Both the position numbers and the translations under genes were made by a program. Of a stretch of 64,000 nt of DNA, positions 4,766 to 61,110 are shown piece after piece. This DNA is from Chiloscyllium plagiosum (taxonomy: Eukaryota), in contig NC_057751.1 of the NCBI RefSeq assembly GCF_004010195.1, positions 19,707,199 through 19,771,198 of the forward strand. The letters run 5' to 3'. A model generated the notes under the pieces. It was not told the origin of the DNA, made no database searches, and worked only from the letters and a program-made list of their open reading frames with translations. The stretch's first letter is position 1. Each line of letters starts with the position of its first letter.

Positions 4766-6264
4766 TACGACAAAAAAAAACAAAACTTGCTGGAGAAACT
4801 CAGCAGGTCTCGCAGCAACCATGTAAATCGATCTTCAGCGAAAACCAACTCTGCTTGGAAAACTTCATTAGAAAGTTGCGATGGTGTTCAGTAGATAGCA
4901 GGCTCTGCCTAACCCCCGCCGATGTCAGTACCAGCTCATGACAGTGACCCAGTCCTGCAACCTGCGGAATACAGGGCACTCCGTCTTCACTCTATGCTCG
5001 GGGCGCCAACCTGCAATTCATCAGTTTAAGAAATTTCGTCTTGTTAAAAAGTCAGCGTCTTTTTTATCCCCCGCCCCCTTTCCCAGATTTAGCCAGATTA
5101 GGACTTGGGGAGACTGAGAATGGAATTCCATACAGTTTGGGGAGGGGGGGGGGGTGGTGTGGTGTAGGGTCAGAATTAAATTCAAGGAAGTTAAGTTGAT
5201 TTTCTATCAGACAGCTGGAGGGCGATTCTGCAAATGAAACGTCTAAAAATGACCAAAGCCAGGACAAATGTTTATTAAAATAACCGCGGGCTTGGTTTTA
5301 AAACGACTAACCAGAACGGCTTTGTTTTGGAGCGGGTGGACTAGCACTGATCAGGTACAGAGGGACAGCTACTGGGGGAGGGTGGAGAGGGCAGAGGGTG
5401 GCGAGAGAGAGGCCTCTCAAAGGTCTCAGATAAAGGGCGTCTCAAAAAGGCTCTCCGACAGAAATTGCTTGTCTGGCGAGCAGGATTATTTTGTGTGTGG
5501 GGTGGAGTGTCTATGTGCAGGGCAATGGGAAGCATGGGAGAAGGTTACAAAAATGAGGATTGCATTTGAAACGTCTCGACTTCTGAATTCTACTGGGCTT
5601 AAAAAAAAAGGTATCCCTCGCTTCAGATGGACGACCAGGTCAAGGACAGAGTCTCCGGAGAGGAGAGGGGTGGGGGTGGGAGCCTCGGAAATCGATGATT
5701 CCTGCCCCAAGGCCTCTCATCCATCAGCTGAGGCCCAGTCATTTCCAGAGACAGGCCGAATCCATCTTGATTCAAAGGTCACTGTAAGTCAGAGCTGACG
5801 CGAGCAAAGACAGCAGCACAGGGCGGCTGCAGCACCTCGAAACAGAGAATGGTTTCACAGAGTGTCCGAGGCACCGCCAGGGGACGGCACTGGGAGAGAG
5901 ATTCCCCAGAACGACTCCCCCGCGGGCTCATTGGGTTCAGTTCTTAGGACTGATCCGGAGAAACTCGGCAGCGTCTCTGGAGGGAGAAACAGAGTTAACG
6001 TGAGTGGGGGAGAGCGTTAATCCGAGAGCCAAGCCCGACCAGGCTGGCATGTCACGAAGCACTTCCTCAGGCAGAGGAGAGCTGCAACCTGGACACTCTC
6101 TCAAAAGAGTTTGTTGAGGCTGGCTCGAGGAAAGGGACACCACTTGAACATTTAAAATCAGTTGATGATAGATTTTTGTTCATTCAATTCATGGGGCGGG
6201 TAGTTGGCGTTAAAATATCGATCAGCCAGGATTTGACTGAGTGTCAGAACACGCTTGAAGGATG

Positions 6265-7355
6265 GTCTCCTGCTGTCCCTGTGTAACAGGCTGGAGGAGG
6301 GGGCTGAATGGCCTCCTTCTTCCCGTGTGACAGGCTCGAGGAGGGGGCTGAATGGCCTCCTGTTCCCCTGTGACAGGCTGGAGGAGGAGAGGGCTGAATG
6401 GCCTTCTGCTGTTTCCGTGTGACAGGCTGGAGGAGGGGGCTGAATGGCCTCCTGCTGTCCCTGTGTAACAGGCTGGAGGAGGGGGCTGAATGGCCTCCTG
6501 CTGTCCCTGTGTAACAGGCTCGACGAGGGGGCTGAATGGCCTCCTTTTCCCCTGTGACAGGCTGGAGAAGGAGAGGGCTGAATGGCCTTCTGCTGTTTCC
6601 GTGTGACAGGCTGGAGGAGGGGGCTGAATGGCCTCCTGCTGTCCCTGTGTAACAGGCTGGAGGAGGGGGCTGAATGGCCTCCTGCTGTCCCTGTGTAACA
6701 GGCTCGACGAGGGGGCTGAATGGCCTCCTTTCCCCCTGTGACAGGCTGGAGAAGGAGAGGGCTGAATGGCCTCCTGCTGTTCCTGTGTGACAGGCTTGAG
6801 GGGCAGTGGAGAGGGGGCTGAATGGCCTCCTGTTATCCCTGTGTGACAGGCTGGAGGAGGGGGGATGAATGGCCTCCTGTTGTCCCTGTGTGACAGGCTG
6901 GAGCGGGAGTGGAGAGGGGGCTGAATGGCCTCCTGTTGTCCCTGTGTGACAGGCTGGAGGGGGAGTGGAGAGGGGGCTGAATGGCCTCCTGTTGTCCCTG
7001 TGTGACAGGCTGGAGGGGGAGTGGAGAGGGGGCTGAATGGCCTCCTGTTGTCCCTGTGTGACAGGCTGGAGGAGGGGGGCTGAATGGCCTCCTGTTGTCC
7101 CTGTGTGACAGGCTGGAGGAGGGGGGCTGAATGGCCTCCTGTTATCCCTGTGTGACAGGCTGGAGGGGGGAGTGGAGAGGGGGCTGAATGGCCTCCTGTT
7201 GTCCCTGTGTGACAGGCTGGAGCGGGAGTGGAGAGGGGGCTGAATGGCCTCCTGTTGTCCCTGTGTGATAGGCTGGAGGAGGGGGGCTGAATGGCCTCCT
7301 GTTGTCCCTGTGTGACAGGCTGGAGGGGGAGTGGAGAGGGGGCTGAATGGCCTTC
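6265..7355 (+). repeat. G-rich minisatellite, 22 units of about 44-55 bp
   Basis: Unit consensus ACAGGCTGGAGGAGGGGGCTGAATGGCCTCCTGYTGTCCCTGTGTG; 22 GAATGGCC cores counted by eye. Confidence 0.97.
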
Positions 7356-7984
7356 CCCTTTCGTGAAACGAAGGGACTTGGTAATGAGTTTGCCAATTGC
7401 AGTTCGAGAGTTTGATCTCTGTTTGTTCAGGACGGGGCTGTTAGGCCAAGGGTTCCCACGTCATTGTTGCCTGAAACTGTACAAATCAATCGCAGGTCGG
7501 CATCTTTCTGAACCACAACCCCAGACAGAATCCAAAAGCGAGACAAATGTACCACTAAATCATTTTAAGTATCTTTTTTTTCTGAACGCATTAGAAGATT
7601 ATATAAATCATTTGATACCAACCGGGTTTCCATGATCTCCTCCAAGACTCCTGTTTCCACACAGAATGGAAATTCTCTCCGAGAATCTGACTTGGGGTAA
7701 TTCATTGCCGACCAAATCTTCACCCTTTGCTGTTCTTGCCCCTGCTCGTGTCTTCAAGTGATTGCAGGATACTCGGAGCCTGGACTTTTGTCTTGTTTCC
7801 CCCCTCCCCAGATTTTTTTTTGAAAAGATCAACTGATTCCGAATCCAAGACTCAAACAAAACAGTGAACCGTCCCTCCCAACAAGCGATGGCTTTGGGTG
7901 GTCAGTTGGAAGTTGCAAGGCCGAGAGCGATAGATTTCTGATCGGAGGCTGAAGGTGGTTGGATCGAAAGAAATTCCCGTTCAA

Positions 7985-8210
7985 AATAAAATCCTGCGGA
8001 TGCTGAAAATCTGAAATAAACACAGCGAATGCCGGAGAAACTCAACAGGTCTGGCAGCATCTGTGCACAGAGAGAGAGAGAGAGAACGCAGAGTTAACAT
8101 TTCGAGTCCAGTATAACTCCTTCGGGCGGTTGAAGGGTCACTGGACCTGAAACGTTAACTCTGTTTCTCTCTGCATAGACGCTGCCAGACCTGCGGAGTT
8201 TCTCCGGATC
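7985..8210. mobile_element. Foldback (inverted-arm) Penelope-like mini-element, family B
   Basis: CCGGAGAAACTC..CAGGTCTGGCAGCATCT...CAGAGTTAACATTTC pairs with GAAACGTTAACTCTG...AGACGCTGCCAGACCTGCGGAGTTTCTCCGG. Partial copies near 4785, 5955, 31285-31490, 46990 and 53720. Confidence 0.7.
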
Positions 8211-8566
8211 AGCCATGACCCTCATGGGATAGCGTCGTCCTGTTCCTCCAAGATCACCCCACGGATTTGCTCTCGTCCCAATCAGTTTGCTGTGTTCAGT
8301 CCGAGATATCTTTCTATTGTTTTCGATGTTAACATTTTGTTTTCGATCAGAATGCACGTGCATTTAAAATCCCTGAAGTGTTCGGCAATCCCAACCCCAG
8401 CGATGGAGGGATTTCATCGCAATGAACCCCGGTGGCTGTCTGGTTTGCAGAACGTCGTGTTAAAATGCAATCTGAAAGCATTGTGTGCGAGAGTGAACAA
8501 GCTGAAAACTTGGTCAGCTCCTCTCACCTTTGGATGGGGATCGAAGCAAACCGGAAACCGATTCGT

Positions 8567-8598
<32 letters not shown>
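8567..8598 (+). repeat. (CT)n(CA)n microsatellite
   Basis: Read directly from the sequence. Confidence 0.9.
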
Positions 8599-8599
<1 letters not shown>

Positions 8600-9849
8600 A
8601 CCCATTTTTAAAAAAACAATATTGATAAATCCGATTGAATAGTTTTAGTCATTTGACCCAATGATGGAGGGAGCCAGAGTTTGGCGAGTGATTTCACTTA
8701 TGTCAGGGGCACCACCCAACATCCAGTTTTTTTCGTTTTATACACAAACCTGGTAACAATTACAACTCGGATTAAATGCCAGGACAGTTCACACTGAAGT
8801 CTTAACTGATTCAATCGAATAACTCATGAGCTGGTCCTGTTTCACCTCTTTGGGATTTATAAACCCAAAGACGAGAATCGTTTTTCTCCTTTATCGACGA
8901 CCTGAGAAATATGATATTTTTGTTTGTTCTGGGACGTTTTACTACATTACAGGCGCTATGTAATAAGAAGTTTGTTTTTGTTCTTGTCGAAAACTGCGAT
9001 GTTTCAGGCGGGCACGCTCCTTTCCTCTGAATCTAAACCCGATAACAATCATTCCGTTACAAAGCAGGTTGGAAACGAACATGCATTTCGGTTTTAAGCT
9101 TCACCTCTCCATACTGATCCTTCAATAATTGCAACATCTTGCATTGTAACATTGAGTAATGTCTGACCCCGCGTTCCTTCTCGGTGATTTTAGTTGAAAT
9201 GAAGAGTGGAGTAATTAATACACATTTGTGGTTAAACGCTTTTGAAACAGACTTGAACTTAGTAACAAGGTGAATCCAAACTGGGAGAGAGTCTCGAAGT
9301 TTAGTACACGATAAGCAAATATTGTCAAGACCCAAAACGTCCCGTCCACACACACCCCTCCACTGCCATCCGCAAGTCAACACTGCTGCAATTGTCAATG
9401 TACGGCATAATTTACCAGCTCCCTCCCCCCCAAAAAATCCCATTGATTATTTCACCAATTTAGTGCTGTCCATTTCGGGTCAGTATCACAGACACACGAT
9501 TCCCTGAGCGTGAAAGTTGACTTAAAAGGAACAACAATTTAGAGAGAAAAGCATAGCCAGACAAACCAGAAATCAGAAATTAAACGTGAGGACAATGTCC
9601 GTGATTTATATACACGCTTAGATAGTTCAGGAAAGGTACTGTCACTTAAACAAGGAACATGAACCTGTGTCCAAAGCAGTCAACACTCCAGCTAGCGCAC
9701 CTGAGAGCGCAGGAAGTGGGCTAGGAGAGCGGCTGAGAGCAGCAGAATGGCAGCCTGAGGGAGAGCAGGTATGCTGAGACTGAGTGCGCGGTAACAGGAC
9801 GAAGGTTAATTGGCACTGACACAAGGCGATTTCTTATTTTCTTTCGCTC

Positions 9850-9945
9850 TCCTCCTGACAGCCAGAAAGCCTTTTGTTTGGCCCTTCAGCCAATCCTGGA
9901 TTTTTACGACACCATAGTTGTGGCCAAAGTTGTGATATAAAAAGG
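9850..9945 (+). promoter_or_regulatory. GDF11 proximal promoter: TGACAG, CCAAT box, TTTTACGAC, TATA box
   Basis: TGACAG 9856-9861, CCAAT 9890-9894 (in AGCCAATC), TTTTACGAC 9902-9910, TATAAAAA 9936-9943 about 150 nt upstream of the ATG; no ATG between TATA and the start codon. Confidence 0.75.
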
Positions 9946-10092
9946 GGCGCCTCCGTTGATCACTTATCATCCACCAGCGTGTCACTCACCCACTGTCCTC
10001 TCCTCTCCCGGTTACAGTCCGGATTCCAGAACTACTCATTTTCAACAGGGCATAACAAACACGCGCACACACCCCCCCCCCACAAACAGATC

Positions 10093-10489
10093 ATGCATAA
10101 ATCACACGTTTTCTTTTGCCTGCTGGTGTCTCTTGGATTGACTGTCAGTGATGAGCCAGTTTTGGAGAAGGATTTGGAAGCTAGGGAAAGGCTCTTAGAC
10201 CAGGCGGAACCTCGGAGACAAGAATGCTCAGCCTGCTTATGGAGGGAGCACAGCAAAGCTCTGAGGTTAGAGTCCATTAAATCTCAGATCCTGAGCAAGC
10301 TGCGCCTGAAACAGGCTCCCAACATCAGTCGGGATATTGTCAATCAGCTCCTGCCCAAAGCCCCCCCTTTGCAGCAACTGTTGGACCGATATGATATTCA
10401 AGGGGATGACTGCCTTGCCAAAGAGCCTCTTCTGGAAGACGACGAGTATCACGCCACGACAGAAACTGTCATTACCATGGCCACCGAAC
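10093..10489 (+). CDS. gdf11: GDF11 exon 1: signal peptide and N-terminal prodomain
   Basis: ATG at 10093; [19 protein letters not shown]...[36 protein letters not shown]...QGDD...[15 protein letters not shown]; donor C|GTGAGT at 10489/10490. Confidence 0.95.
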
Positions 10490-10744
10490 GTGAGTACCTC
10501 CGTGCCATCTTCCACACGTTGTGCAATGATCATGCCGATCGGCTCAAACAGATATTAAACGGTATTGGGGAGCTCAGTCTCCGAAAAAGGTTATCTTAAA
10601 AACTTTCATCGCGGCTGTCTGTGTAACAAGAGTTAAATATGAAATGTTGCTATCCAAGTGCTAACAACTTCGTGTTGTTATATCAGGCACCTCCTGGTAG
10701 CTCTCTTAATAAGGAAGCGATTTTTTGAACTATCCCCTTAGCAA

Positions 10745-11760
10745 ACAGTAATTTCCAGGTTGTAATCCACATGCCAATTCCATACGCAGCGATGGTCTAG
10801 GACTATGTTTTATGCAACAAATCACGAATCTATAAAGCTTGAAGTAATTTTAGACTAGTTTTTTTTTTACCGGAGTGACAAATTAATTGCCCCACTGTTA
10901 ATAAACTAATCTCGTACCGACGATTTCTAGGTTATCACTCACAGATCATTATCCGAAACCACTTCTGTCTTAGATACGATATTACAGGAAGTTCTAGTCT
11001 ACAGTTTCAGGTACTGTCACACACTCTAATTCCTGAACTATCTTTTATAAGATAGCACAATAGTAATTTCAGGACATAAAAGACCACGGTTATTTTTACA
11101 CTGTTGTTCATAAAATAATAGCAACTTCGAGAATTTAGATCATAAAATAACAGTAATTTCTAAATTATAATTCAAGAAATATCAGAAGTTCTAGACGAGT
11201 TCGTTACACTATTACAAAGCCAACTTTAGATTATATTTGATAAAATATCAGACTGTAGAAATTAGGGTTATTCAAAATATCGCATGGCAATGTCTAGGCT
11301 ATAGTACATGAAATATTGCAAAACCTCAGCCGTCATTTCTATAGGTCGCCAACTATCAGAAACAGTAATTTATTGACAATAGTTAATTAAATGTCAAATT
11401 TCTAGATTACTGTTGAGAAAAAGCATAAGCAGTACCATGAAGATTATTATTCATAAAATAACAATTTTCAGAGTTCATATGACTATAATGCCTCAGACCA
11501 TTTTCAGATAAGATAGCTGAAATGTCTAGATTATTGTTCATAAATTATAAATAACCATTTCTGGACTATATTTTATAAAATACCACAAACTAATTTCGAG
11601 AGTATAATTCACAAAAAAAATCAAATGGCAATTTACATTAAAAATCACAAAAGGTTATTTCTGTAGTCCATACAAGCAATAATTCCTAGGCTATAGTTCA
11701 TAAAATATCACAAAAAGTAATCTCTAAGCAATAGATCTTACAATACTATCACAAAACACT
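10745..11760 (+). repeat. Highly degenerate AT-rich tandem repeat, about 35-40 bp unit
   Basis: Recurring variants of AGTAATTTCTAGACTATAGTTCATAAAATATCACAAA, e.g. near 11095-11170, 11520-11590 and 11680-11730. Confidence 0.65.
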
Positions 11761-12654
11761 AACGTTAAGTAAAATTGAGGGTGCAGTCTACCGGGTTCTA
11801 TTGAATACTGCACAGCCAAGCATCCTGTTTGCTGTCAAAGGAAGTGGGGGTCACTGTTTGCCTCACTGGCATTGCATTGGAGTTTGTGCTGCAGGGGAAG
11901 TAGGAAAGCAAGGCTACTGTTTGTGGAGGTGAAAGCAATCCTGTTATGGAGACAGGAGCAAGTTGTACAGAGGGTGGTTGATGAGAGAGTCATAGCTTGG
12001 AGGAAATGATGAAGAGATTGTCCTATATTCAGGTAAGTGTCCCATCCTTTGCATATATGCTTACTGCTTGGACATGGAAGACATGTTTCTCCCCTGCACC
12101 TTCAAGGAGAGAATATTTGGGTGCATTCATCCTTTTGCTGCTGTGCTTTGACATAGAATAATTGCAATGGCGCACAGTAATAAAGCAGTTTCCAGTTCCA
12201 TTCACTGAGCACCTCCAAGATCTCCACACCAGTTTACAAAGTCTTGACTTCAACAAGAAAAGTGATTTAGGTACAGGGTGCTACTTGGAGATGATCAGAG
12301 GAATTCCCATTGTCTCCTTTTCCCTCTTCTATTTGGAAATGCAATTGGAGAGAGAGGACTAGGATAGGCATTGGTTGGGGATAGTTGGAGGTGATGGCAA
12401 CTATACTAGATAAAGCAACTGAAGCCACTTGGAATTCAATGTGTTGACTTGGATGGGTTCAATACCACCAACAAGAAAACATTCTCCATTGATTTTGGCC
12501 TTTCATACTCTTGACTCCATTTCATCACTTTCATGGCATGGATTGTACTAGCCAAGTGACTATATGTATCACACCTCAGTATCTGAACTGTTTTAAGAGC
12601 ATGATCATGCCTAAGCACTGCAGTCCCCATTATTTTTTTCTTGGTAGACTCCTG

Positions 12655-12762
12655 CTGAAATGATTCTGGATTAGAGTGATGCTGGAAAAACACAGCAGTT
12701 CAGGCAGCATCCGAGGAGTAGGAAAATCGACATATCGGGCAAAAGCCCTTCATCAGGAATAC
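12655..12762. mobile_element. Half copy of foldback mini-element family A
   Basis: GATTAGAGTGATGCTGGAAAAACACAGCAGTTCAGGCAGCATCCGAGGAG...GGGCAAAAGCCCTTCATCAGG matches the left arm of the 45883-46079 element. Confidence 0.8.
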
Positions 12763-13449
12763 GAAATGAAGTGAGACAGGTTGGTTTCAGGAACATTGCA
12801 ACTGTTTGAATTAACTAGAACCCAGAGACTGCAATTTGTCAGTTAGAGGAAGGGGACACTATGAATCAAGTGAGGAGCAAATGGAGGTGACAGGATGCCA
12901 CATGTCAACAATACAGGCAGGGAGCTGGTATGTTACTGGGCATGCATTCATTTGAAAATTGATGCAGGGATAAAGAATGGTATTTGCTATTGTTTGAGAC
13001 TAATGTACAGTCTGCAGTCTCTGGTAAAGAACAGGTATTGGCATCTCTGTGATCACTTCAGTCAGGTAGCATGCCAAAGAGTGTGTGACACCTTCTGAAA
13101 TCTATAGGAGAACCCCAAAACTGAGAAAACAAGTAGCATTCTCATAGCAATATGAATGACATCCATTAAACCTTAGACACCCAATCTTGTTGGCAGCAGA
13201 CTGAAAAGACTGGTCAGCTATTTGTGAAGAAGAAACAGAATCTGTTTTACCCACATCCAATACAGACTGCCTCATGTGCTGATCATAGGGTATCCAGACT
13301 GGATGCTCAGCCATGGTGCTTGGCAGGATTAAATGGTCCAATTGTGGTTCATTTTCAATGCAACCTCACCTCCTTCCATTCCACCCAGTGCCCTCAGACG
13401 GATTGGGAAAGTATCTGAGAATGAATTGGCATTGACAGTCATTGCAGAC

Positions 13450-14975
13450 CATAAGACACAGGAGCAGAATTAAGCCATTCAGCCCATCAAGTCTGCTCCA
13501 CCATTCAATTAATCACAGCTGATCGAATGATCTTTGCCTTCATGTTCCCCCATTTTCCTCCTAACCTTTGACTCCCTTACTGATTAAATATCTGTCCGTC
13601 TCAGCCTTGAATATACTTAATGGCCCAGTCTTCGATGGTAAAGAATTGCACAGAATCACTCCCTTCAGAAGAAATCCCTCCTCCTGCCTTACTCTGAGAT
13701 TACACTCTTTGGTCCCAGACTTCTCACAAGGCAAAACAGCCTTGCTGCACCTACCTTGTTAAGTCTACCAAGAATGTTGTATGCATCACCTCTCATTCTT
13801 CAAAATTCCAACACAATACCAACCTCTCCTCAGATTTCTTCCACCATACCATAGATCAGCCTAGTGTTCCTTTTCTGGACTGCCTTCAATGCCAGTATAT
13901 CTTTCCTTGGATATGGGGATCAACTGTTCAATGTATTCCAGCTATGGTCAGACGTGAGCCTTACATAGTTTTAGCAAGACCTACCTATTTTTATACTCCA
14001 TTCCCTTTGAAATAAAGGTCAACATTACATTTGTCTCCCATATTACCCACTGAACATGGATGTGATGCGATGAGATTTTTGCACAAGGACTCCCAAATTC
14101 CTTTGTGCTGTCATGTCTCCATCGAAATAATATTCAGTTCCTCTATTCTTCCTGCCAAAGTGCATAACCTTACATTTTCCTACATTATGTTCCATCTGCC
14201 AATATTTTGCCCACTCACTGAACCTGTCTGTATTTCTCTGCACAGTCTTTGTGTCATTTCATTAGTTGCCTTCCCACCTATTCTCATATCACCAACAAAC
14301 CTGGCTACAGTACATTCACTTTCCTCAACTATGTCATTTACATATATTGGAAATAATTGTGTTCCATATTGCACTCCACTGGTTACAAGCTGCCATCCAG
14401 AAAATATCTCACCACTAACCCCGCCCACATCCCAATACTAGTTAGACAATCCTCTATTCATGTTGAAATATACTACCTCCAATCCATGGGCTCTTATTAA
14501 GTAGTCTAATGTGTGGTACCTTATCAAATACATTCTGAAAATCCAAATATATCCACTGCCTTGTCTTTATCTATCCTGCTTGCTACCTTCTCAAAAAATT
14601 CTCAGCGATTTGTTTGATATGATTTCCCCTTCATGAAACAATGCTGACTCAGCTGTAGTATGCATTTCTAAGTGCTCTGTTATTCCATTCTTTATAATTG
14701 ATTCCAAGATTTTTCCAACAATAGACTTTAAGCTACTTAGTCTACAGTTATCTGTCATTCATTTCCTTTCCTTTCTAAATAAAAGACATTCCATTGGCAG
14801 GTTTCTAATCATCTGGGACTTTTCTAAAATCTAAGAATTCTTGGAAGATTACTACCAGTGCACACATGATCTCTGTAGCTCCTTCTCTTAATATCTGGCT
14901 GCATCCCATCAGGTCCACGGAACTTATTGGTCTTTAGCCCCACTGATTTTCCTAGCACTTTTAGCATTGTTAATA
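13450..14975 (-). mobile_element. Old CR1 LINE, reverse transcriptase region to 3' end, degenerate
   Basis: Fragments SGWQLVTSGV, LFPIYVND, EWAKYWQMEHNVGKCKVMHFGRKN and GPDGMQP; CR1 3' terminus at about 13450. Confidence 0.88.
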
Positions 14976-17900
14976 TGTCTTCTGAAACAACGAGGACATC
15001 ACCTGACATTTCCAGAGTCTGAAGACACACCATCTGAACACGCTCAGACTATCTAACCTCAATTTGCCGCTGTAGGTAATCCTCCAAATTAGGGAGTATA
15101 TGAATTCAGCCCAAGACAAACATACCTCATTGAGGGTCACCAAGGGTAAACACAAGTGTAGGTTTAATACCATATCACCTATGCACATAGCATAGGATAA
15201 GTGCTGACCTTATTTTAGCCTTTGTAAGGAATATGTAACCTGTTCTTTTGACTGCTAGCAGTAGTTCTTGATCAGCATTCTGAAGTAAACTTCCAGCCTA
15301 TACATGGCATCCATGTTAGCCTATTTCCTCTTCCTGTCAGCCTACCCATGACTTCCCATACTCACTCTTCTTTGAGGTCATAATTTTATAGCATGCAGAT
15401 AGTAAATGCTTCTGGAGACTTTTGCTGAGGTGGAGAGTAAACCTGACTAGTTGAATAGTCCATACATAGGATGAAGAATACACCATTAAGCACCACAATT
15501 TTGTTCCAATGGACACTGGAATCACTACATAATTCTGGTGTTTTCCATGCAACTTTAGGTGGCTGAGTGCATCTGCCCTGTATTAACATCTGGTTGGAGA
15601 TCATCGACCTTAACTATAAATGGTAACCTAGGCATCAAGGTTAGTCATCTCAATCCATGCCCTTTATGGAAAAGATTGCACTCAATTACTGTTCAGGTGG
15701 CATCTGACCACAAAGGTATTGTCATGTATCTTAGTGGCTGTCATCAGGAAACAGCTATGATGTCCCCCTTGTGCAGGCTCCCAGAAAGCTTGAAGGGAGA
15801 CACTAGTTGCATGATTTGTAGGAGAACAAGACTACCTTCTACAATCATGAACCATTGATCTGGACACCACTGCAAATGCCCTTAAGTGCAAGAGCAACTT
15901 GACTTGAATATCTAAACATTTGCTTGTGTTGTTATTACCATCTTTAGGAAAATGACACCTTGTGAAAGAGCCTACACAAATGCCACAAACATGGTCCAAA
16001 TTATAATAGATATCATTACAGAGGCTTAAACAAATCAATCCATACATTAACATGTTAAGCACGCTGAATATGTTTGATTAACAGCTCTTGCGCATTTAAT
16101 GTACATATTTAAATTTTGCTTTGGTCCTTTTGTTTGGAAATGATATCTCAACCTGTCTTGCAAGATTGAGCAGTTTGTCTGAAGCTATTAGAGAATGGGA
16201 AGATGCAAAGAAAAATGTTATTTACTTCAATGATTGATCTTGTTGAGCAGATAAATGATACAATGGAGATTGTAGGAGAAGGTTCTCCTAGAGTTGTGGC
16301 CAGAGACACTGAACCAGACAAACATCAACAGTAAAAACCCAAAAATATAACCAGTTTTCTCGAGTTCAGCCCTTCTTATCCAAGTTAAACAGCAACAGTT
16401 AAAGTAATTCTCATCTTCCCTGTTTGGTTAGCTCCAGCTTGCAATACAGTATGAATGATCATGTTTAGTACAGCAATCTAAACAGTTTGTAGGTAAAGAA
16501 AAAATGAAGGAGGAAATAAAAATATATTAAATGTTTGATGCAGAAGTAGCAAATCATTTTTGCAAAAGAACAGGTCTATGTCCATATTACAAAAAAATAT
16601 TTTAAGCTACAGTGTCTAAGATGCAAATGGTCATTTTAAGTTATATTTTGAGTGCAAATCACAAAACATTTTACACAATAGATTCTATGTATGCATCAAA
16701 AAGTCATTTTCTGATTTGATCAAATGTAAATACAAAGTGAATTTATACTATGGATCACATGCAAGTTGCAAAGTAATTTTATGCTGTATATAATGTCGCA
16801 AAGTCACTTTATGCTGTCGAACATGTAAGCCGCAAAGATATTTTAAGCTATACTGTGTATGTGCAAGGCATTTTGCGCTATAGTTTGTATACAAAGATTG
16901 CAAACATAATTTCTTATTCCATAATTCAAATGATTGTGGTACAGTACATACCTTTCAATACTGAAGTTTATTGCTTAATGTTGTAAACAGCAATTTCTAA
17001 GTTATATTTCAGATCTGATTGTTATTTCTGGGTAGTGTTTTAATGCAGAAGTATGTCCATCACCAATTTATAGACCTATAATTTGTATGTTAATAAGACA
17101 AATAATAATAATTGCTATATTATGGTTCAATGGTTAATATTACAGTAATGTCTGTGATATAGTTCATGCAAAGAAATTGCAATAGCTTGTAGACTATGAT
17201 AAATGGTCATTTCTGGACTATTGTTCATGCACAACAATAGACAGACATTTCCAGGTAGGTTGTTCCTTGAGCAGGATAATCAGTTTGAAATAAATTGTTT
17301 GAGTGTGTTTCTTGAAACATAAGTGAATGAGTGAACAGAAACCATATTACTTGATTATTTCAATGACAAGGTATTTTCAACTGGAAATCCTCAGGAAAAA
17401 GTCATTCTTTTAGCTGACTCCTTGAAGAGAGGTACTTCTGTTGCAGAACCTTTTGGAAAATATCACTTTACAAAAAAAATCAAACAAATAAGTGGAGAAA
17501 CCTCTGCTATATTTTGGTTTACAAAATAACCCCAAGGGGAAAAATATAATTGTAATGATTTGGCATAAAAGTACATTATCTCTGAGAGATACAGGCCACA
17601 CAGTTCTGCTTTCCAGGTGATAACCAGACTTTTCTTCGTTCCAATATCACAAGTAGGAGGTGTGTTGACCACTGTATTGATAATTGATACATGGCAGAAC
17701 ACATACAGTAGCATTATTTGTAGCACAAAATATTTTATTTAAAATAGGATCCTGTGTTTTTCAGGACCTGTTCGCACTTTTAGAAAAGATAATGGTCAAG
17801 ATGTGGGCATTGCTAGCAAGGTTACCATTTATGCCCATCTCTAGTTACCCTTGAGGTGGTGGTAATATGTCTTCCTGAACTGTAATTCATGTAAAGGTAT

Positions 17901-20900: not shown

Positions 20901-22059
20901 CTGCACATACTGGGGAATACAAATCCCAGTGCAATTCTCTGCAGATGTCAGTGGAACAAGATCAACCCTTTATGAAATGAACGCACTGGGCACTAAAACA
21001 ATGTTACAGTGAATTTCATTTGAAGGTCTGTTAGTTAATATAGGACATTTGGTTTCTGGATTCATTGCTTAACTCAGAGGCTGAGCTGTGTAAATTAACT
21101 CAGCATTTAAATTCCTGTCAGAGCATTCTTTTCCCCATTTAGTAAACGGTGGATGGATAATAGGTTTCCTGTAATAAACTGCAGATTGTTTCTCTGTTAA
21201 ATCACAGTAATACTATGCTGCTGTCAATTAAGTTATTGATGGAACAGAACAATATTTTAGAAACTAAGGAGGAACTTGCTTAGCTGATTGTAACCAATAT
21301 TTAAGAGGGACTTTTTAGTTTTATCCTCCCACCTCCCTGCATATTTCCCTACCCGGTATTGCTCCTAAAGCAGTGTTCTACATTCATTAATTTAAGATGA
21401 AGCATCTAAGTGTGGCACCTGGACCCCACCCTGGTTATTAAGTCAACTCCGTACAGATGTTTTCTAACCAACTTGTTTAGAGAAGCTATTACACATCTAT
21501 GGGGCTGGTACTTGAACCCAGACCTCCTCAGCCAGAGGCAGGGATGCTATTACAGTGCAAATCGAGAATCAAACCTGGATTTTTCATAGTCTGCAGAGCT
21601 CCTCTTAACTAGAATTACAGGGACAGATTGAGTTTTGTGGTTAGCCTTATTTGTATCTATTCTCTCCGTCACCTTCATGGTTAGCAGAGCTTACTGACTG
21701 CTTTCGTCAGTTGACACAAGTGACAGAGAGGGGCTTTATCACATCAAACTGGAGTTAACCTTCGCATGATCCTGAGAAGTGATGACCCTCACGTTAAACT
21801 ACCACCAGTCGTCTCTCTCTAATGAGAGAGCATCCACATGGTCCAGTAGAATCGTGGCAGGCTTACTTTTGTTTTACTGGAAAGGGATTTGGCTCTTTTA
21901 ATATGTCGTCCTTAGTCACGTAACTGAGGAAACAATAAGTGAACACAGAGTACTGCTTTATATAAACAATAAGCCTAACCAACCTTCAATCAAACTTTAA
22001 CCAAAAAATGGCATACGCCCCTCACTTAATATGTCAGTCGCTCCGTTCCCTCACACACC

Positions 22060-22425
22060 CCATTTAATCCCAACGCCCCATTTTCTCTTTCGCTCCCTGT
22101 ACTTATGCCGTGTAGCCCCCCAGGGCATATTTTGTCACTCTGTACTCACTCAGCTTAACCCCTGGGCTTGTGTTTTTTCTCTATCTCCTCTCATCCTGTG
22201 TAACCTCTAGGTCCTATTCTCCCTCTCTGCACCCACCGATTAACTCCTGGCCATTTTCTCTCTGTACACACCTGGAGCAATCTCTGTCCTGTTTGCCACC
22301 TTTCTGTACTGACCCTGTGCAATTCATGGGTGTGTTCTATCTCACTTACTCTCACCCATATAACCACAGGACCAATTTCCCCTCTGTACTCATCCTATGC
22401 ACCCTAGAACCTGTTCCCCTCTCTT
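22060..22425 (+). repeat. Degenerate pyrimidine-rich minisatellite, about 40-46 bp unit; resumes at 24410-24560
   Basis: Repeated CTCTGTACTCACCC..TGTAACCCCTGGG variants on both sides of a transposon block. Confidence 0.7.
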
Positions 22426-30417: not shown

Positions 30418-30791
30418 CTGAACCCTGTGTCCAAGTGGATGGGAGCCCAAAATGTTGCTTTTTTAAATTTAGCCCCAAAATAACATTTACAAACTTGGTG
30501 CGAGCTCACCTCTGGGTTTACCTGCGTCCAGTCCTGCACACCTCCACTGTGTACCTGCAGATCCTCAGGCTGAAACCTGTGACGGAGAAGGGCAGCAGGC
30601 ACTCACGGATCCGATCCTTAAAAATAGACTTGAACTCCCGCAACGGGCGCTGGCAAAGTATCGACTTTAAGCATGTGCTGCAGAACTGGTTCAAGCAACC
30701 TCATGCCAACTGGGGCATTGAGATCAACGCCTTTGATATGAACGGCAATGACCTGGCTATCACATCTCCAGGAAATGGAGAGAAGGGACTG
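30418..30791 (+). CDS. gdf11: GDF11 exon 2: prodomain arm
   Basis: Acceptor TTTTTTTGTAG|CT; (P)[20 protein letters not shown]...LWVYLRP...[29 protein letters not shown]...GEKGL; donor CTG|GTGAGT. Confidence 0.96.
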
Positions 30792-34878: not shown

Positions 34879-35259
34879 CAACCATTTCTGGAAGTCAAAG
34901 TGGCAGAAACAAACAAACGTACCCGGCGAAATCTGGGACTAGACTGTGATGAGCACTCCACAGAGTCACGCTGCTGCCGTTACCCATTAACAGTTGATTT
35001 TGAGGCCTTCGGCTGGGACTGGATTATTGCTCCCAAACGATACAAAGCCAACTACTGCTCTGGTCAATGTGAATACATGTTCATGCAGAAATACCCACAC
35101 ACCCACTTGGTACACCATGCCAATGCCCGGGGCTCAGCAGGGCCCTGCTGTACACCTACCAAAATGTCGCCCATCAACATGCTTTACTTTAACGACAAGC
35201 AACAAATCATCAACGGGCAAATTCCGGGTATGGTGGTCGATCGATGTGGCTGCTCTTAA
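34879..35259 (+). CDS. gdf11: GDF11 exon 3: furin site and mature TGF-beta cystine-knot domain
   Basis: Acceptor [34 protein letters not shown] then [47 protein letters not shown]...DRCGCS-stop; mature domain starts at 34930 with nine Cys. Confidence 0.98.
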
Positions 35260-52085: not shown

Positions 52086-52127
52086 TCAGACAATTCCAAA
52101 ACGTTCTGCTCTTTTCCTCTTCTTTGC
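52086..52127 (-). CDS. sarnp: SARNP last coding exon (AKKRKRAERFGIV*)
   Basis: cttctttttttag|GCAAAGAAGAGGAAAAGAGCAGAACGTTTTGGAATTGTCTGA; human ends AKKRKRAERFGIA*. Confidence 0.95.
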   Translation of the reverse strand, partial: AKKRKRAERFGIV

Positions 52128-52682
52128 CTAAAAAAAGAAGGTATCAATATCAGAAAGTCTATTCATTTACAATTCATTTCTTATACGATAAATTGATCCT
52201 AGTCATCTTAATGAATTCAGCAATGATTATATCACGAGAGTTCGCAGAACAATGATTCATCATCCACATCCAGCATGAGAACCATAATTCTATTGATGAT
52301 GGAATCGATCATATATACTATGTAGAACTATTATATAGCATATTCGAGAATATATCCATATTACCACTCAACCACAAGGCAATTACATCAAATTTTGATT
52401 CATTAGTTTGGAGTACACAGGGAACAGGAGATGGTAGATTTGTATCTTCACTCCATTCAACTGCTGGAGCCTGTGACCTTTCATTACTCCTCCCCACCCC
52501 CACCCGACAGACACAAGGTCTGATCAACCTTAGATTTAAAATGATTAGATTTGCAATTGCTAAAAGCAACAAAATAAAACATTTACGCATATTATACATT
52601 ACTAAAACCAGTCATGTAAAAACCTAGAGATCAGAGCTGGTGTGTTTCCATGGTGTTGGCTAATTATGTTGAGTTTGATTAC

Positions 52683-52766
52683 CTCAACATCATCCCCGCC
52701 TCCCGCTGAACTGGTCACAATTCCAAATCGCTCCTTTCTCTTTTTCATTTTTTCATCATCTTCAGT
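52683..52766 (-). CDS. sarnp: SARNP penultimate coding exon (TEDDEKMKKRKERFGIVTSSAGGGDDVE)
   Basis: ttacttgtag|ACT...GAG|gtaatc, 84 nt; homologous to human SEDDEKLKKRKERFGIVTSSAG. Confidence 0.95.
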
Positions 52767-53889
52767 CTACAAGTAAATATAAACACACATTAAAATCATA
52801 AAAGAGATATCAGAACTAATTCAAGACAGAAATGTCCATCTCAATTCGTAAATACAATATGATATGGGACAAAGCCACAAATACGTATATAAAGAAATGA
52901 ACACTTGAGCACGATTCCAGACGGCTGCAATTGCACAGCAGCCAAACATCATTAAAAAATTACAATGAACTGAGAAAACAACTTCTCATTATGTCCCAGC
53001 AGTTAACATACTGCACAAAATTACAATACCCACTGAAAGCTCTGGGTAACAAAAGGGTTACAAAGAACACAATCGGTATTTTTTGGCTAAACTGAGTAAA
53101 CCATAACAACAATAAACAGCAAAAGTGTACCAAGAATTCAGGCAATTTATAGAAAAAAAAAAAGAGTACTCTGTCCCAGCATAGCCAGGAAAAGAAAACA
53201 GGTAGTATTAGAATGCAAGTCATTGTTTGACCTCAAATCTCTAAATACTCCTTAAACATTTATTGGCATGTGCAGCTTTGGTGCCATTACCAAAGAAAGG
53301 AAAAGAACTTCCGGAAATTCAACCACACAGCTCTCGGCATTTCGCAAATGACACTTATCTGAGCGTTGTGAAACATTAAGTAGCTTCAAATGGTAAACAT
53401 TCAATGCACTATGCTAAATCAATTAAAGCAATTTGCTGGCATTCAGTGAGGTTCTGCCCTGTTAATAAAAGACTTCGAGTCGAGAGAACAGCCATGACTT
53501 GGTTGTATAACACTTTGAAGAAAAATAAGAGGCTTTTATTGCTGACAATTGATTTGGTGTTGAACTAAGCAGCAGTATACAAGAGGTTGACTCATTGGAT
53601 TAGAACCAGTTTCCCCACAGAGTTTGGTTAAAGCAGTATTTCAATTTCATTTCAGAGCACATGGGAGGACAAAAAAGTTGTTCCTTTATCAAATCAGGAA
53701 AGTGCTAGGAACACACCATGTCTGACAGCATCTGTGGAAAGAAAAACAATTCATGTTTCAAGTTGAACATGGCGCCTTCAGAAAATATTCAGTTGTATGT
53801 GAATTGAAACATGAACAGTTTCTCTCTTCACAGACACTTTCATCTTCCAAGTTTTCCTTTGTGTTTTTTCCAACATTGGGCTGCATGCT

Positions 53890-54690
53890 TCATTTAAAAT
53901 ATGTACTGATATCATCCCTCTTGATCTATCCACTGACATAGATTGGTCACTGCTTCTTTGATGCTCATTGTCATATAAATCAACAATTTTCCAAACAAAA
54001 TATTGGGAAGACCAAAGCCATCATTTTTGATACCTACCAACAACTCCATCCCCTCCCTGATCACTGTCTGAGCCTGTACCAGCATGCTGTCCAATCAGAT
54101 TCAATGAGCTTTGACCTCAAATCTACTTCATCACCAAGTCTATCTACTTCCACCTCTGCAGCACTGCCAGTCTTCACCCATGCTTTAGCTCACTTGCAAA
54201 CCTTATCCATGCTTTTGATATCTCTCGACTTGATTATTCCATGTTTTTTTGGCCAGTCTTTTACCTGCCATAAAACATGTCCTCACCCAAACCTCCTGCT
54301 ACCCATATGCTAACTGACCCAAGTACCATTCACCACTACGCTCACTAACTTCAATTGGTTCCTTGTTCAAAACCAAGGACTGTAACTAAACCAAATTCCC
54401 ATATGTATGCCCCAAACTAACTCCGCACTCCATCAAATTTGGCTTTTTGCCCATTCAATTTTCAATTGCTCCACCACTGGCAGATACCCTCAAGCTCTGG
54501 GATTCTGTACCAAACCTCTCTACTGCTTTTTTTTCCTTCCAAAGCCACCTGAGAACTTATCAGTTGAGCAAAACATTTGATTACCTATCATAATACTTCT
54601 ATGTGGTTTGGTAACAATTTTGTTCAATACACACACTTGTGAAGTGGTTAGAGACATTTAACTACATTAAATATTCCATATATATCCAAG
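53890..54690 (+). mobile_element. L2-type LINE remnant in a SARNP intron
   Basis: Approximate reverse complement of the 37240-38200 remnant, ending TGTGAAGTGGTTAGAGACATTTAACTACATTAAA. Confidence 0.55.
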
Positions 54691-57469
54691 TTATGCACAC
54701 TCTTGGTAGCTTGACAAAATAATTACATAAATAATCCAGTCTGTAAAAACAACCAAACAAGTAACGTTTGCTATTCAGACATACAGAATCAAATCATTCC
54801 TTCCAAGTTTAAATACTTGCATAAAGCAAGTTAGAAAAAGTACAGCAGGAGAGATTTGCAGTGCTTTAGTTTCTGTAAACCCTAGTTCCAAATTTTAAGC
54901 AGCTACCAGCTATCCTCTACCACAGCTCAAATTGACATAAATTAGTTTTTTTCAAAAAGTCTAACTAATTGAGTTTGAAAAGCAGTTTCCTAACACAAGC
55001 AAAGTCAAAGGATCAGGTAGGAATACAGTACTATTATGCAACAGGGCTGTGATTACAACACTTCATTGGTTTCAGACCCCTGGGTTGTGGAACAGGACAA
55101 AAAAAAGATTCCCACTCCTAATTGCTGCCCAGTGACCCTTGCTGGAGTGTATTTGCAAGGATCAGATAAGGAGGGAACAAGTGGACATGACTCTCTGCTA
55201 GCTAACTAACCAACACAGACAATCAAATAGGCAGGAATAAAGACAGGGTCACTGCTATGTGTAGAACTATACCTCATTGCAAGTTACTCAAGGACAGCAT
55301 ACTTGCACTAACTCACATGCAACCATTCAAAGACTAATTCAGAGCAGCAAAAACAGCATCGGAATAATTTCAGCAACAACATTAAAAAGGTCTAATAGAA
55401 CACACCTAAGGTCCTGTGTAATTTCATTGCACGAGTTCTGCGAATTAAATTGCAATGGTGAGAAGCCACTTTTTGTCACAACTTCTGCCCCTCTTCTGTT
55501 CACTTCCCCATGTTTCCATTAAATCAAACAACTAAGAATAAGGGCATGTAGAGTAGGAGAGCAAGGTTTCAAAAGTACATCCACAACCACTCCCCATTTG
55601 CAACAGCCTGTATGTAGCAAATGTCACCTTGTAAAAATACAAGCAATGAAACTAAAACATCTCTGAGGTAGAAATATAGTCCACATCAACAGGAAACATT
55701 CAGGAGGTTCAATGAACTGCTATAGTCAACTTCACATTGTAAAGATTTCCTATGCAGCTGGTTCAATGATTACACAGTCATTCAATACCTAACATCTAAT
55801 ATTTTGGATAGCTTTTTAATAGAATCACCATCTATACAGACATCTACAATAAACAAAATAGTTCCAAAGTAATTTTTATCGCATCTTATGAGCAGCATCA
55901 AGATTCAATCACCAAGGGAAATAGAATTTAGTGGAAAATAATATTTTTAAAGCCATACTATCAAAACATTTGATTTTCCACCACTGAATTCTGTTTGCTT
56001 TTCCCATTCAAATATTGAAAAGGTCACTTTGGAGAATGCTCCTTCGGACATCAGCTTGCAGTTACATGCAGATAAACAAAGGATGCCTATTCAAGTATTA
56101 TTGTATTACCAGCTGGGTTTACTTCCTCAATTACACAACTGCACTTTGCTACTGTGTTCAGCACCAATACACACCACAGAGGACGACAACTCTAGGGGAG
56201 GCAATAAGGATAAATGTGGCCTGGTTCAATTGGTAAGCAATGTGTTTTTTCTTTAAATGGCTCAGTAAGCAAAGGTCATTTGCACTCACCTTCTCTCAAA
56301 GTCATTAAGGAAAAAAAAGTTAGAAAACTACACAATTGTTGCACCTTCCATGTTCATACGTCCAGGCTTGTGGCTATTTTTGCTGGCAATGTTTTATTAC
56401 CCATTGGCTTAGATTCAGATATTGTAATCCCCCAGCTTCTCATGTTTTTAAATTGTGTTGTTACCAGTCTGCAATGGAGGAGAGACTAGCTGATCACTGC
56501 AGTGTTGCAGACCTACAAAGAGATAGTGTACACAATCACAAGTCCCTTCTCACAGTAAGGGGCCAACGACAATGACAACTTCACTGTGCTACAATGTTTT
56601 CTGAAGCTGTCAGCTGCATTCTCCCTGCCATCAACGTTCATTATACCATCTAGTGTGGCTTGATCGAGAGCTCCTCAAGAACTCACAGGGGGTAGAAAGA
56701 ACACATTGTCACCTTAAAAGGCTTACCCAGGCAGCACTCTTAACACAAAGCCAATTTGTTTGTGGATTCAAACTTAGCAAAAACCCAGGTGACAGATGAA
56801 GCCTACTAAAGTGTGCTACGGAACAGAAGTTTACACTTGCCATAAAAATGCAAAGAGATTTTGGCAAAAAATCTTCATGTACTTTTGAAGAAATGGCAAA
56901 CTGGATATTTAATACAGAGCTGTATTGTTGCTTCAGTGTTACGCAAGAGGGTCATTATTTCGCAGCATGCTGCAATGAGCCCACTTCCAACTGTGTACAA
57001 AAACTTCCCAAGCACCCTTCGATAATTAAATTTTCTATCCTTGTTACAGTCAAAACATTTACCACCTAATGGCGGTCATTATAATTCGCTCCATGTGCGC
57101 ATTTCCTGCAAGTGGTGGTGTGCCAAGTCCATTACCAACTACAATAATGTTTTCTGTACTAATCAGAAGCCATTTGAGGCTTAAGGTGATTAACCAGTCC
57201 AGCAAGGAATATACCAAACTTTTAAACCTGCAAGTCGGACCTTCCATTCTATCACCTCCACTTTCTGCAAAAATGGCCTGATTAGCTGCCACCTCAACTA
57301 GTAGCAACTAATTGTTTGAAATTTGTCAGCTGCTTTTAGCAAACTGTCGCTTATAAGTGAAGTATTCTTCATCTCTCTGGTCAATGGAAACCAGTACAAT
57401 ATTAAGCATATTAGAAGAAAGCAGTGTAATGAGGTTAATTGAGAACTCCAGTTTTTTCAAATCAACTTC

Positions 57470-58410
57470 AGCCAGAATTGCTGAGTGGATGATCCATCTT
57501 GACCTCTCTCCTGAGTCCCAAGATGCCAATTTTCAGCCAACTCAACTCATTCCACATATCAAGAAATGGCTGACCCCACTGGATACTGCGATGGATAGGG
57601 ACACAGATAACATTTCAACAATAGTACTGAAGTAATGTTTCCTAGTACTAGTCACACACCTTGCCAAGCTGTTCTGGTACAGCTACAACACTGGCATTTA
57701 CCAAACAGCGTAGAAAATTGTCCACAAAAGACAAGGCATATCCAACCCAGCCAGTCTCCTCAACTGTCAGTAAAGTGACTGAAGATGTCATAGTTGGTCA
57801 TTCAAACAGCACTAACTTAAGAATATTGCCCTCTCTGACACCAGGGGCACTCAGCATCAGGCCTCATTACAAAGTGTATACAAATGTGGACTAAAGAACT
57901 GAACTCTAGAGGTGAGGTGAGTGTGACTGTCCTTGACATCAAGAAAACTGTACCATCAAACAACCCTGACAAAACTGAAATCAATAAAATTCAGAGGGAA
58001 AACTCTCCAATGTTTGGAGTCATACTTCGCCATGCAAGGGAAGATAATTGTATAGTTGCAGCAGGTCGCTGCAAGAACTCCACAGGGCAGTGCCCCAGGC
58101 CCAGCCATCTTCAGCTGCTTCAATAATAACCCTTCCATTATAAGGTTAAAAGTGGGGATGTTTGCTGCTGATTGAACAATGTTCAGCACTGGCCTGAATC
58201 TCCTACAATTAACACCCTAAGGGTTACCTTTGACCAACAACTGAACTGCTCTGCTCACATTGTGACGACAAGTGCAGGTCAAAGTTTGGGATTCTTCAGC
58301 AAGTAACTTCCTTCTGACTACCCAAAGCTTGTCTACTATCTAGAAGACAAGTCAGGAGTACAATGGAATTCTCTCCACTCGCCTGGATAAGTGGAGTTTC
58401 ACCAACATTT
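57470..58410 (+). mobile_element. Second-family LINE, degenerate reverse transcriptase region
   Basis: WTKELNSRGEVSVTVLDIKK, QGSAPGP..FSCFNN, MFAAD-like remnants and YKAQVRS.MEYSPLAW-like sequence near 58335-58390. Confidence 0.75.
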
Positions 58411-58982
58411 ATGATGCCAGCTGATGACATTACTGGACAGTCCGATGTCAGTGAAATCTGGCTTAACAGAAATTGTGTGTTTCAGTTAATATGGTGGTCA
58501 TTCACATAAGGCAGTAAGTTTCCTTAGCAACAGAAAATAAATTACACAGAATATTGAACGCAATTAGCAAGATCTTAAAACATACAGCAAACCAAATTTT
58601 CAATTTGTTTCTTAACACCATGAATTTACAGCCGCGCAAAATCACTCTTCTAGATCATACTAAGTTTGATTTAACTAATTCTCCCCAGTTTTCTGAACTG
58701 TGGAGTCTTATGACACACACACTCTCAAAACAGAGCTCGACTTCCTCAGCTTTTGCTAACCTGCAGATTTCTAAACAAATACTGTAGGTCTGGAAGCTGC
58801 AACAACTGAATTTTTCTACAATTCCCTTAGTTGCAATGAAAAAAATTCCTGTCTGAGACTCTTGCTGCTTATGACCCCTGTCAGGTCTCCGCCAAATTGC
58901 TCTAAGAACTTGCAATTGCTGGTTTTCTAAACCAAAATCAACCCTTGATTGTTATGACTGAAAACAAGCCAATGCCATTCAA

Positions 58983-59206
58983 TGGAGGAGAAAGTGAGGA
59001 CTGCAGATGTTGGAGATCAGAGCTGAAAAGGTGTTGCTGGAAAAGCGCAGCAGGTCAGGCAGCATCCAAGGAGCAGGAGAATCGACTTTTCTGGCATGAG
59101 CCCTTCTTCAGGATTCCTGAAGAAGGGTTCATGCCAGAAACGTCGATTCTCCTGCTCCTTGGATGCTGCCTGACCTGCTGCGCTTTTCCAGCAACACCTT
59201 TTCAGC
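58983..59206. mobile_element. Near-perfect palindromic mini-element (92-bp arms, 1-nt spacer) with 13-bp direct flanks
   Basis: Arms 59022-59113 and 59115-59206 (90/92 complementary); CAATGCCATTCAA at 58970-58982 and 59206-59218. Confidence 0.93.
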
Positions 59207-59664
59207 AATGCCATTCAAATGTTTACTGTACTGTTGTATAGCACTATTTGTATAAACAATTTTCCATTCACACTCCAGGTTCTCTGCTCCCTGGATTAGG
59301 TTCTGGACTAATTGCCTGACACAGATTTTTTTCTTTGAGAAAAATCTTTCACAGAAATAACCAACAACCACAATCACTATCTTGAATTTCAAATTCCAAA
59401 AAATTACAGATAAGAAGCATGACACAAGCCAGGACAGAGCTCACTAAAGGTGATCAAGGAATTGTAAGGATGCAGGCACAAGAGCAAGAGAGCACACTTA
59501 CTCTCAGTGTTCACACTCATGTATGCAGGCACGCATTGACCCTTGCTGTACAGGTTCAGGAGGCCTACTAGACCATAGTGACCGCAGTCCTACCAAGGGC
59601 AGCGCCACTCGGAGTTTCATCCCCAAACCTACTTGAAGTCTTATTCTCCAGTGCTGCCACTGAC

Positions 59665-60480
59665 TTACAAAGAACAGTACAGCACAGGAACAGGCTCTTC
59701 AACCCTCCAAGCCTGCGCCATCACATTTTGCCTGTCCATTCTAGAACTGTCTTCATTTACAGGATCTGTATCCTTCTGTCCCCTTCCTATTAGTGTATTT
59801 GTCCAGGTGAATGTTGCTATTGGGTCTGCTTCCACCACCTTTACTGGCAGCGCATTCCAGACACTCACCATCCTTTGTGTGAAAAACATGCCTCACGCAT
59901 CTCTGTTAAACTTCCCTCCCCTCACACCTTGAACCTGTGTCTCCTAGTAATTGACTCTTCTGCCCTGGGAAGAAAGCCTCATACATTCTACTCTATCCAT
60001 GCCATTCTAATCAGTCACCCCTAAACCTCCTGCACGGCAGTGAAATCAAACCTTTCTTCATCGCTAAAATCCTCCATACCAGACAACATCCTGGTAAACC
60101 TTTTCTGTACAGAACTGCATGCAATATTCCAAGTGTGGCCAAACTAAAAGTTCTGTAAAGCTGCAGCATAACTTGTCTATCCTTATACTCAATGCTCCTT
60201 CCAATGGAGTTAAAAATCACAACACCAGGTTATAGCCCAACAGGTTTATTTGGAACCACTGGTTTTCAGAGCGCTGCTCCTTCATCAGGTAGTTGTGCTG
60301 TGTGCTTCCAAATAAGCCTGTTGGATTATAATCTGGTGTTGTGTGATTTTTAACTTTGTCCACCACCAGCTCCTCCACATCATACTTTCCAATGAAGGCA
60401 AGCATGTTATAAGTCTTTTTAAAAAATCTATCTTTTCACCCTGCGCCGCTACCTTCAGTGATCTGCGGACCTGTACACCA
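59665..60480 (-). mobile_element. CR1 LINE 3' part, interrupted by a foldback element (family C, about 60208-60385)
   Basis: FFTQRMVSVWNALP and IGRSIEYKDRQVMLQLYRT remnants. Insert has inverted ends AGTTAAAAATCACA / TGTGATTTTTAACT and TTCCAATG on both sides. Confidence 0.85.
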
Positions 60481-61041
60481 ATACTCCGAGGGGATGTTCC
60501 CAGACCCACCCAAAAATGCATTCTCTCTCTTGCAAGCCCCCCCATGGCCAACGTCACTCCTGGCCTCACAGTGAGTGAGGAAACTCACTCATACAAGTGT
60601 CAGGTGTTCTAATCAGAGGCAGTTCCTCTCCCGTGTTTGCTAATGATAGGCACATTAGTGAGACTATCAGCAAATGCTGGAGAGAAAAGTCCTCCATCCA
60701 AGAGTATCTCCTTGCACGATGCTCCAAATACAACTACGTTGGTTGCAGGTCAGACAGGATCCCTGGGTGGGCTGCAGTTTGGCCCACAGACTGCCCATTA
60801 GACAAATCCAACCTAGAATGCAAGCCAACAGGTGCTGGGAATTGTCAGGTTTTCACCCCATAAGTTTCTCCAATACTTTCTCTTACCTGATATTTATTAT
60901 CTTAAGTCACTCACTCTTATTAGCACCTCAACTATCCTGCCTCGGGTGTGGAATTTTGTATCTTCCCCCACCGCCAAAAGCATAACAAGGTATTAAGTTC
61001 TGTCAAAAAATACTTATAGTTTGACTAGATTCTTCACCTAC

Positions 61042-61110
61042 CTTTTTTGAGAGTGATGAGACATTCATACCAAATCTTTCAGCTCGCTCCCTCAATTTTT
61101 CAGCACTGAT
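61042..61110 (-). CDS. sarnp: SARNP internal exon (ISAEKLRERAERFGMNVSSLSKK)
   Basis: aactttcag|ATC...AAG|gtaggt, 69 nt; homologous to human VNLDKLKERAQRFGLNVSSISRK. Confidence 0.93.

Follow-up and report, generated by a model that had tools for sequence, protein, structure and literature searches.

A myostatin-like proximal promoter upstream of shark GDF11, probably older than the duplication that separated the two genes

The 64-kb stretch of carpet-shark DNA analysed here (the window) carries a GDF11 gene on its forward strand. Coding exon 1 lies at 10093..10489, exon 2 at 30418..30791 and exon 3, with the furin site and the mature ligand, at 34879..35259. Together, the three exons encode a precursor of 383 residues that is identical at 380 of 383 positions to a Chiloscyllium protein annotated as GDF11-like. 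The protein cluster of shark GDF11 has 22 members, and the 15 that are listed all come from sharks and rays. The introns (intron 1 at 10490-30417, about 19.9 kb; intron 2, about 4.1 kb) contain LINE-like fragments. Tail to tail with GDF11, on the reverse strand, are three 3' exons of SARNP (52086..61110, i.e. approximately 61042-61110, 52683-52766 and 52086-52127). Two SARNP fragments gave weak matches to the Pfam family Tho1_MOS11_C (E 0.002 and 0.028) that fall short of its curated threshold, and the fragments had no match in the PDB. No CD63 motifs were found upstream of GDF11 within the window. An assembly gap of 241 N sits between simple repeats at 50327-50567, and a GC-rich tandem repeat array occupies 6250-7350, about 2.5 kb upstream of the GDF11 promoter.

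A preliminary description of this DNA had identified the gene as GDF11 from its coding residues and its neighbour SARNP. The second part of this argument stands: GDF11 and SARNP are adjacent at human 12q13 (available text of PMC4938641). The residues agree in part. The shark protein is GDF11-type in 23 of the 37 columns that separate bony GDF11 from MSTN, MSTN-type in nine and neither in five. At the diagnostic columns where lamprey differs the ratio is 14 to 4, but many of the GDF11-type mature residues are also present in lamprey. The mature region scores 250 bits against GDF11 and 239 against GDF8 chains of equal length taken from solved structures. We built three protein trees (28, 18 and 22 rows), all without a shark MSTN and with four invertebrate outgroup rows that form long branches. 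Bony MSTN is a firm clade excluding the shark protein in all three. The grouping of shark with bony GDF11 has a support of only 73/57 and 76/65 in the best trees, and a topology placing the shark protein with MSTN is not rejected in these trees lacking a shark MSTN (p-AU 0.316 and 0.289). If the gene were a myostatin orthologue, or a hidden third paralog, a myostatin-like promoter would be unremarkable. The support and p-AU values leave room for this, as do the nine MSTN-type columns and the fact that no row named shark MSTN occurs among the matches listed (120 rows in each protein search, ten named representatives of 150), which is not evidence of its absence. Yet both counts of diagnostic columns point to GDF11, as does the position of SARNP, and elasmobranch Gdf11 is reported to lie on an X chromosome whose human homologue is chromosome 12, alongside Dhh, Wnt1/6b/10b and HoxC (excerpts of PMC12318234 and PMC12952989). 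We regard a misassigned myostatin as very unlikely. We name the gene GDF11 for its neighbour SARNP and its diagnostic residues, and it is the synteny that carries the assignment. Since Gdf11 is reported to be X-linked in sharks and rays, the promoter described below is probably on the X chromosome.

The conserved vertebrate MSTN promoter carries a Meis site (TGACAG), an NF-Y site (CCAAT), a CRE-like site and a TATA box, in that order. The same order had been proposed upstream of the shark gene, and the three strings quoted for it are all present in the window, 157-237 bp before the ATG: a Meis block at 9852-9866, a CCAAT-to-ACGACAC block at 9888-9912 and an AAGTTG-TATA block at 9927-9945. Motif starts, with offsets from the ATG at 10093, are 9856 for TGACAG (-237), 9890 for CCAAT (-203), 9906 for ACGACAC (-187) and 9936 for TATAAAA (-157). 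Read along the forward strand, the element begins with TGACAG (9856..9861), a candidate site that we take to be of Meis/TALE type. A 13-bp word follows (9866..9878), identical in teleost gdf11 and missing from teleost mstn-1, which marks it as a feature of the GDF11 lineage. Then come a CCAAT box of NF-Y type (9888..9895; AGCCAAT in the shark, at both teleost loci and in dromedary MSTN), the CRE-like element (9904..9912), AAAGTTG (9926..9932), which directly precedes the TATA box and is common to MSTN promoters but degenerate in teleost gdf11, and the TATA box itself (9936..9944), which matches the distal MSTN TATA. The order of sites is that of MSTN and their spacing is nearly the same. One element departs from the pattern: no TGACG, the canonical CRE half-site, occurs in 9001-10100, and the shark carries TTACG in its place. 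The stretch that leads from the CRE-like element to the TATA box (9912-9934) contains a pair of 11-bp copies, 12 bp apart, which may reflect a small tandem duplication. There was no Rfam match in window 7000-11000. Substitution differences to close relatives (40 of 108 differences listed) were too few for a test of constraint. A scan of both strands of the 64-kb window gives a single instance of the ordered cassette TGACAG..RRCCAAT..TATAWA, and 6 Mb of second-order Markov sequence gives none; CCAAT and TATA alone co-occurred 14 times. This pattern was defined post hoc, after the data had been seen, and hence the alignment tests weigh more than the cassette count.

For these tests, we searched metagenome assemblies with a profile of exon 1, and three of 483 candidate stretches were real vertebrate loci, all of them teleost. 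One is a gdf11 with 648 bp of upstream DNA (L001), another a gene of mstn-1 type with 717 bp (L002); the third (L003) comes without upstream DNA and was excluded. None of the 71 candidates in viral contigs was real. In genome contigs, one of 41 candidates was a bacterial chance match and was discarded, and the single match of a plasmid search was likewise judged to be chance. We then aligned locally about 650 bp upstream of each ATG, using 500 dinucleotide shuffles as the null. The shark GDF11 upstream region scored 74 with that of teleost mstn-1 (null 28.2 +/- 3.3) and 63 with that of teleost gdf11, and no shuffle reached either score (0/500 in both cases). The two teleost regions scored 29 with each other, which 235 of 500 shuffles reached, i.e. 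chance level. Of 97 window tiles, the one with the shark promoter ranked first for both teleost queries. When the letters of the Meis, CCAAT, CRE-like and TATA sites were kept fixed and the rest was shuffled, the observed score was reached in 0 of 5000 trials for mstn-1 and 2 of 5000 for gdf11. On these tests, the promoter homology is real, extends beyond generic motifs and is about 100 bp long. The likeness to MSTN promoters outside the motifs, as first proposed, is thus borne out, and a comparison with dromedary MSTN by eye agrees.

Promoters with CCAAT and TATA are common, and the chance-level alignment between the two teleost loci would fit a history in which such generic boxes were assembled independently before both genes. 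The motif-preserving shuffles led us to reject this reading. It would also have to explain why each of the four promoters has ACGACAC at a fixed 16 bp from the start of CCAAT, and why AAAGTTG and spacer letters are shared. We consider convergence or chance extremely unlikely. Our preferred interpretation, which we hold with good confidence, is that positions 9850-9945 are the proximal promoter of shark GDF11 and are homologous to that of myostatin, both descending from one module that would have stood before a single GDF8/11 gene and been kept by both copies. The preliminary description had drawn this conclusion for the shark gene. The feature is not shark-specific, since teleost gdf11 has the cassette too, again with 34 bp between TGACAG and CCAAT. 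For the same reason, the main claim would survive even if the shark gene were misnamed.

The shark promoter is not uniformly close to either teleost gene. It matches mstn-1 at 22 of 25 positions in the gap-free block from CCAAT to ACGACAC and at 17 of 22 in that of the TATA region, against 17/25 and 15/22 for teleost gdf11. From the Meis site to CCAAT the relation is reversed (11/34 with mstn-1, 18/34 with teleost gdf11). By these counts, the shark GDF11 promoter is a mosaic, nearer mstn-1 from CCAAT to TATA and nearer teleost gdf11 from Meis to CCAAT. Distances vary as well: CCAAT and TATA are 46 bp apart in the shark, 43 in both MSTNs and 36 in teleost gdf11. In teleost mstn-1 (L002 499-504), a TGTCAG lies at -35 from CCAAT, which is the TGACA core on the opposite strand. 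The teleost gdf11 TATA is 423 bp from the ATG (L001 226-648), as compared with 141-163 in the other three promoters.

The closeness to mstn-1 between CCAAT and TATA is what one might expect if gene conversion, or an exchange of promoters, had made MSTN and GDF11 alike at some time after they duplicated, either among early jawed vertebrates or on the lineage to sharks. However, the shark promoter shares GDF11-type marks with teleost gdf11: the 34-bp spacing, the 13-bp word, and TT before ACGACAC (giving TTACG), where both MSTNs have TG (TGACG). The likeness also ends at the motif cluster, with the 5'UTR and further-upstream DNA at chance level in four of four flank comparisons, as purifying selection would predict. 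Moreover, the two paralogs lie on different chromosomes. We therefore attach little probability to a conversion, and an inherited promoter remains the reading that we favour.

Apart from the shark gene, our comparison thus covers three promoters: one gdf11 and one mstn-1, both from teleosts, and a single MSTN from a mammal, the dromedary, whose promoter letters were taken from part of the supplement of PMC6566074 and read by eye. The dromedary text agrees with pig and horse primers (excerpts of PMC4012078 and PMC10806362). Three gap-free blocks match shark GDF11 at 11/12, 20/25 and 18/20 positions, i.e. 49 of 57 letters. Dromedary MSTN has AGCCAAT, with TGACAG at -29 from CCAAT rather than 34 bp away as in the shark, and 43 bp from CCAAT to TATA rather than 46. 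For sheep MSTN, the available text of the promoter review PMC6477727 gives offsets from the ATG of -206 for CAAT and -163 for TATA, which fits the shark positions of -203 and -157. The same text states that pig and human use the distal of the MSTN TATA boxes, that the CREB, NF-Y and MEIS1 sites of mouse Mstn are essential for basal activity, and that a vertebrate MSTN proximal promoter/enhancer with these sites and a TATA box was described by Grade et al. (2009, 2017). It says that only the CAAT, CREB and TATA sites reach fish, in contrast with the TGTCAG core of teleost mstn-1, when this is read on the other strand. Overall, the shark element resembles the MSTN proximal promoter in motif order, near-identical spacing, inter-motif letters and position from the ATG. 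It differs in preceding GDF11, in having TTACG instead of TGACG, in having no second downstream TATA and in showing no likeness outside the core.

The shark promoter had been set against a GC-rich mammalian GDF11 promoter. As far as base composition goes, the contrast is sound: the human GDF11 promoter is reported to be 77% GC in the accessible part of PMC8109099, and the shark promoter is 52%. The same source describes a functional CCAAT box at -66 of human GDF11, trichostatin-responsive according to Zhang et al. (2004) as cited there, so that both genes have a CCAAT box shortly before the start of GDF11. The human box may be the same element as the shark CCAAT, in which case the module would be partly kept in mammals, and the contrast is less sharp than first drawn.

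Four of 24 listed runs were examined for transcription over 8600-11400. None of the listed runs is recorded as RNA, and two contig sets from related species were guessed to be RNA (hereafter RNA-like). Their contigs cover exon 1 from 9946 in one species and 9950 in the other up to the donor at 10489, where they end, and intron 1 is empty. Transcripts therefore begin near the TATA box, as had been anticipated. The contig ends lie 10-14 bp past the first base of the TATA box, closer to it than expected of a start that the box directs (about 9962-9969), and contigs cannot fix the exact start site. In the raw-read run X21, of which about 2% was covered, no read fell on this interval. The probable start region is 9946..9973 on the forward strand, with initiator-like words at 9960 and 9967.

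One of the two RNA-like runs (X16) also covers the upstream DNA, at about one-third of the exon-1 depth. The loose end of this coverage before 9701 corresponds to window positions 7985-8010, and a GT..AG intron (9700 to 8011) can be placed only on the minus strand. The coverage is putatively a spliced divergent transcript, whose first exon (9701..9953, minus strand) would overlap the promoter. Its second exon (from 8010 downward) falls within a dispersed repeat and the joined stretch has no open reading frame longer than 46 codons; it may be a long non-coding RNA or the leader of an upstream gene. These data, together with contig ends closer to the TATA box than expected, raise an alternative in which the block is homologous and conserved but acts in the shark mainly as a dispersed two-way promoter or enhancer, and the TATA box does not set the start. 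This is compatible with promoter homology. Against it, MSTN has kept the same TATA box and flanking bases, and its matching TATA is reported as used (available text of PMC6477727), the contigs do not show start sites and the divergent transcript appears in one of the two RNA-like runs. We judge this alternative unlikely.

On the interpretation that we prefer, the module consists of the TALE site, CCAAT, the CRE-like ACGACAC element, AAAGTTG and TATA, and would have been kept by both gene copies after the early vertebrate duplication. By analogy with mouse Mstn, CCAAT would be bound by NF-Y, the site 34 bp before it by a Meis/TALE factor and the one 16 bp after it by a bZIP-like factor. Jointly, the three would bring the basal machinery to the TATA box and so determine basal output. 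NF-Y and TALE factors are known to cooperate at early embryonic genes in zebrafish. One of the paralogs is muscle-biased and the other broadly expressed, and since both would share the module, tissue choice would come mainly from other elements. The shark copy would have changed least, and would for this reason be nearer to teleost mstn-1 and to teleost gdf11 than these are to each other. Inheritance of a shared core promoter from a common ancestor is most likely in view of the letters compared, and an ancestry before the duplication is the simplest reading of a comparison among a shark, teleosts and one mammal. The true site may be the invariant ACGACAC and not TGACG. One can go further to a joint reading, which we think less likely than not: the shark promoter is a nearly unchanged pre-duplication copy; ACGACAC, whose 16-bp distance from CCAAT is fixed in both paralogs, unlike the TGACG half-site, forms a composite NF-Y partner site that for myostatin has wrongly been called a simple CRE; the module is bidirectional; and the split between muscle and tail-bud/neural expression arose wholly outside it.

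Duplicated conserved non-coding elements have persisted beside ohnologous genes since the vertebrate genome duplications, and most of the known cases are distal enhancers of genes for developmental transcription factors. The present case is similar in being a short non-coding homology between paralogous loci, older than 400 million years, and differs in that it concerns the core promoter of a pair of secreted ligands. The MSTN promoter has been studied in depth. Duplicate genes that share ancient non-coding sequence are a familiar phenomenon, so no new mechanism is involved. We found no report of a shared GDF11-MSTN promoter in the open-access literature; subscription journals, home of the primary promoter papers, lay outside this search. 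The term 'gdf11' occurs 0 times in PMC6477727, whose supplements hold no promoter letters for the three motifs searched, and the accessible portions of PMC3427181, PMC8905337 and PMC5979292 contain nothing on promoters.

Myostatin, which limits muscle, and GDF11 are near-identical ligands with different roles, and the extent to which regulation contributes to this is under active debate. If both genes inherited one core promoter, the split between them would lie in other elements. The basal inputs (NF-Y, TALE and bZIP-like) may be common to the two genes, a point of relevance to any effort to adjust the promoter of myostatin only. The comparison also singles out a small set of positions that sharks, teleosts and one mammal have conserved, which are targets for mutation. 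It is the shark sequence that reveals a homology missed when teleosts are compared with teleosts.

Some observations concern the coding part of the gene. In run X17, one contig (depth 6.6) joins 10489 to 34879 and skips the 374-nt exon 2; the resulting join of exons 1 and 3 shifts the frame and reaches a stop after 155 residues. The mature ligand (exon 3, 35112-35225) has HHANARG and IINGQIPG, where the other aligned GDF11s have Q(Q/H)A(N/S)PRG and a string beginning II(Y/H) (13 protein letters not shown). IINGQIPG is present in nine of nine aligned shark and ray proteins and HHANARG in eight of the nine. Judging from their sequence, these changes could alter the binding of receptors or antagonists.
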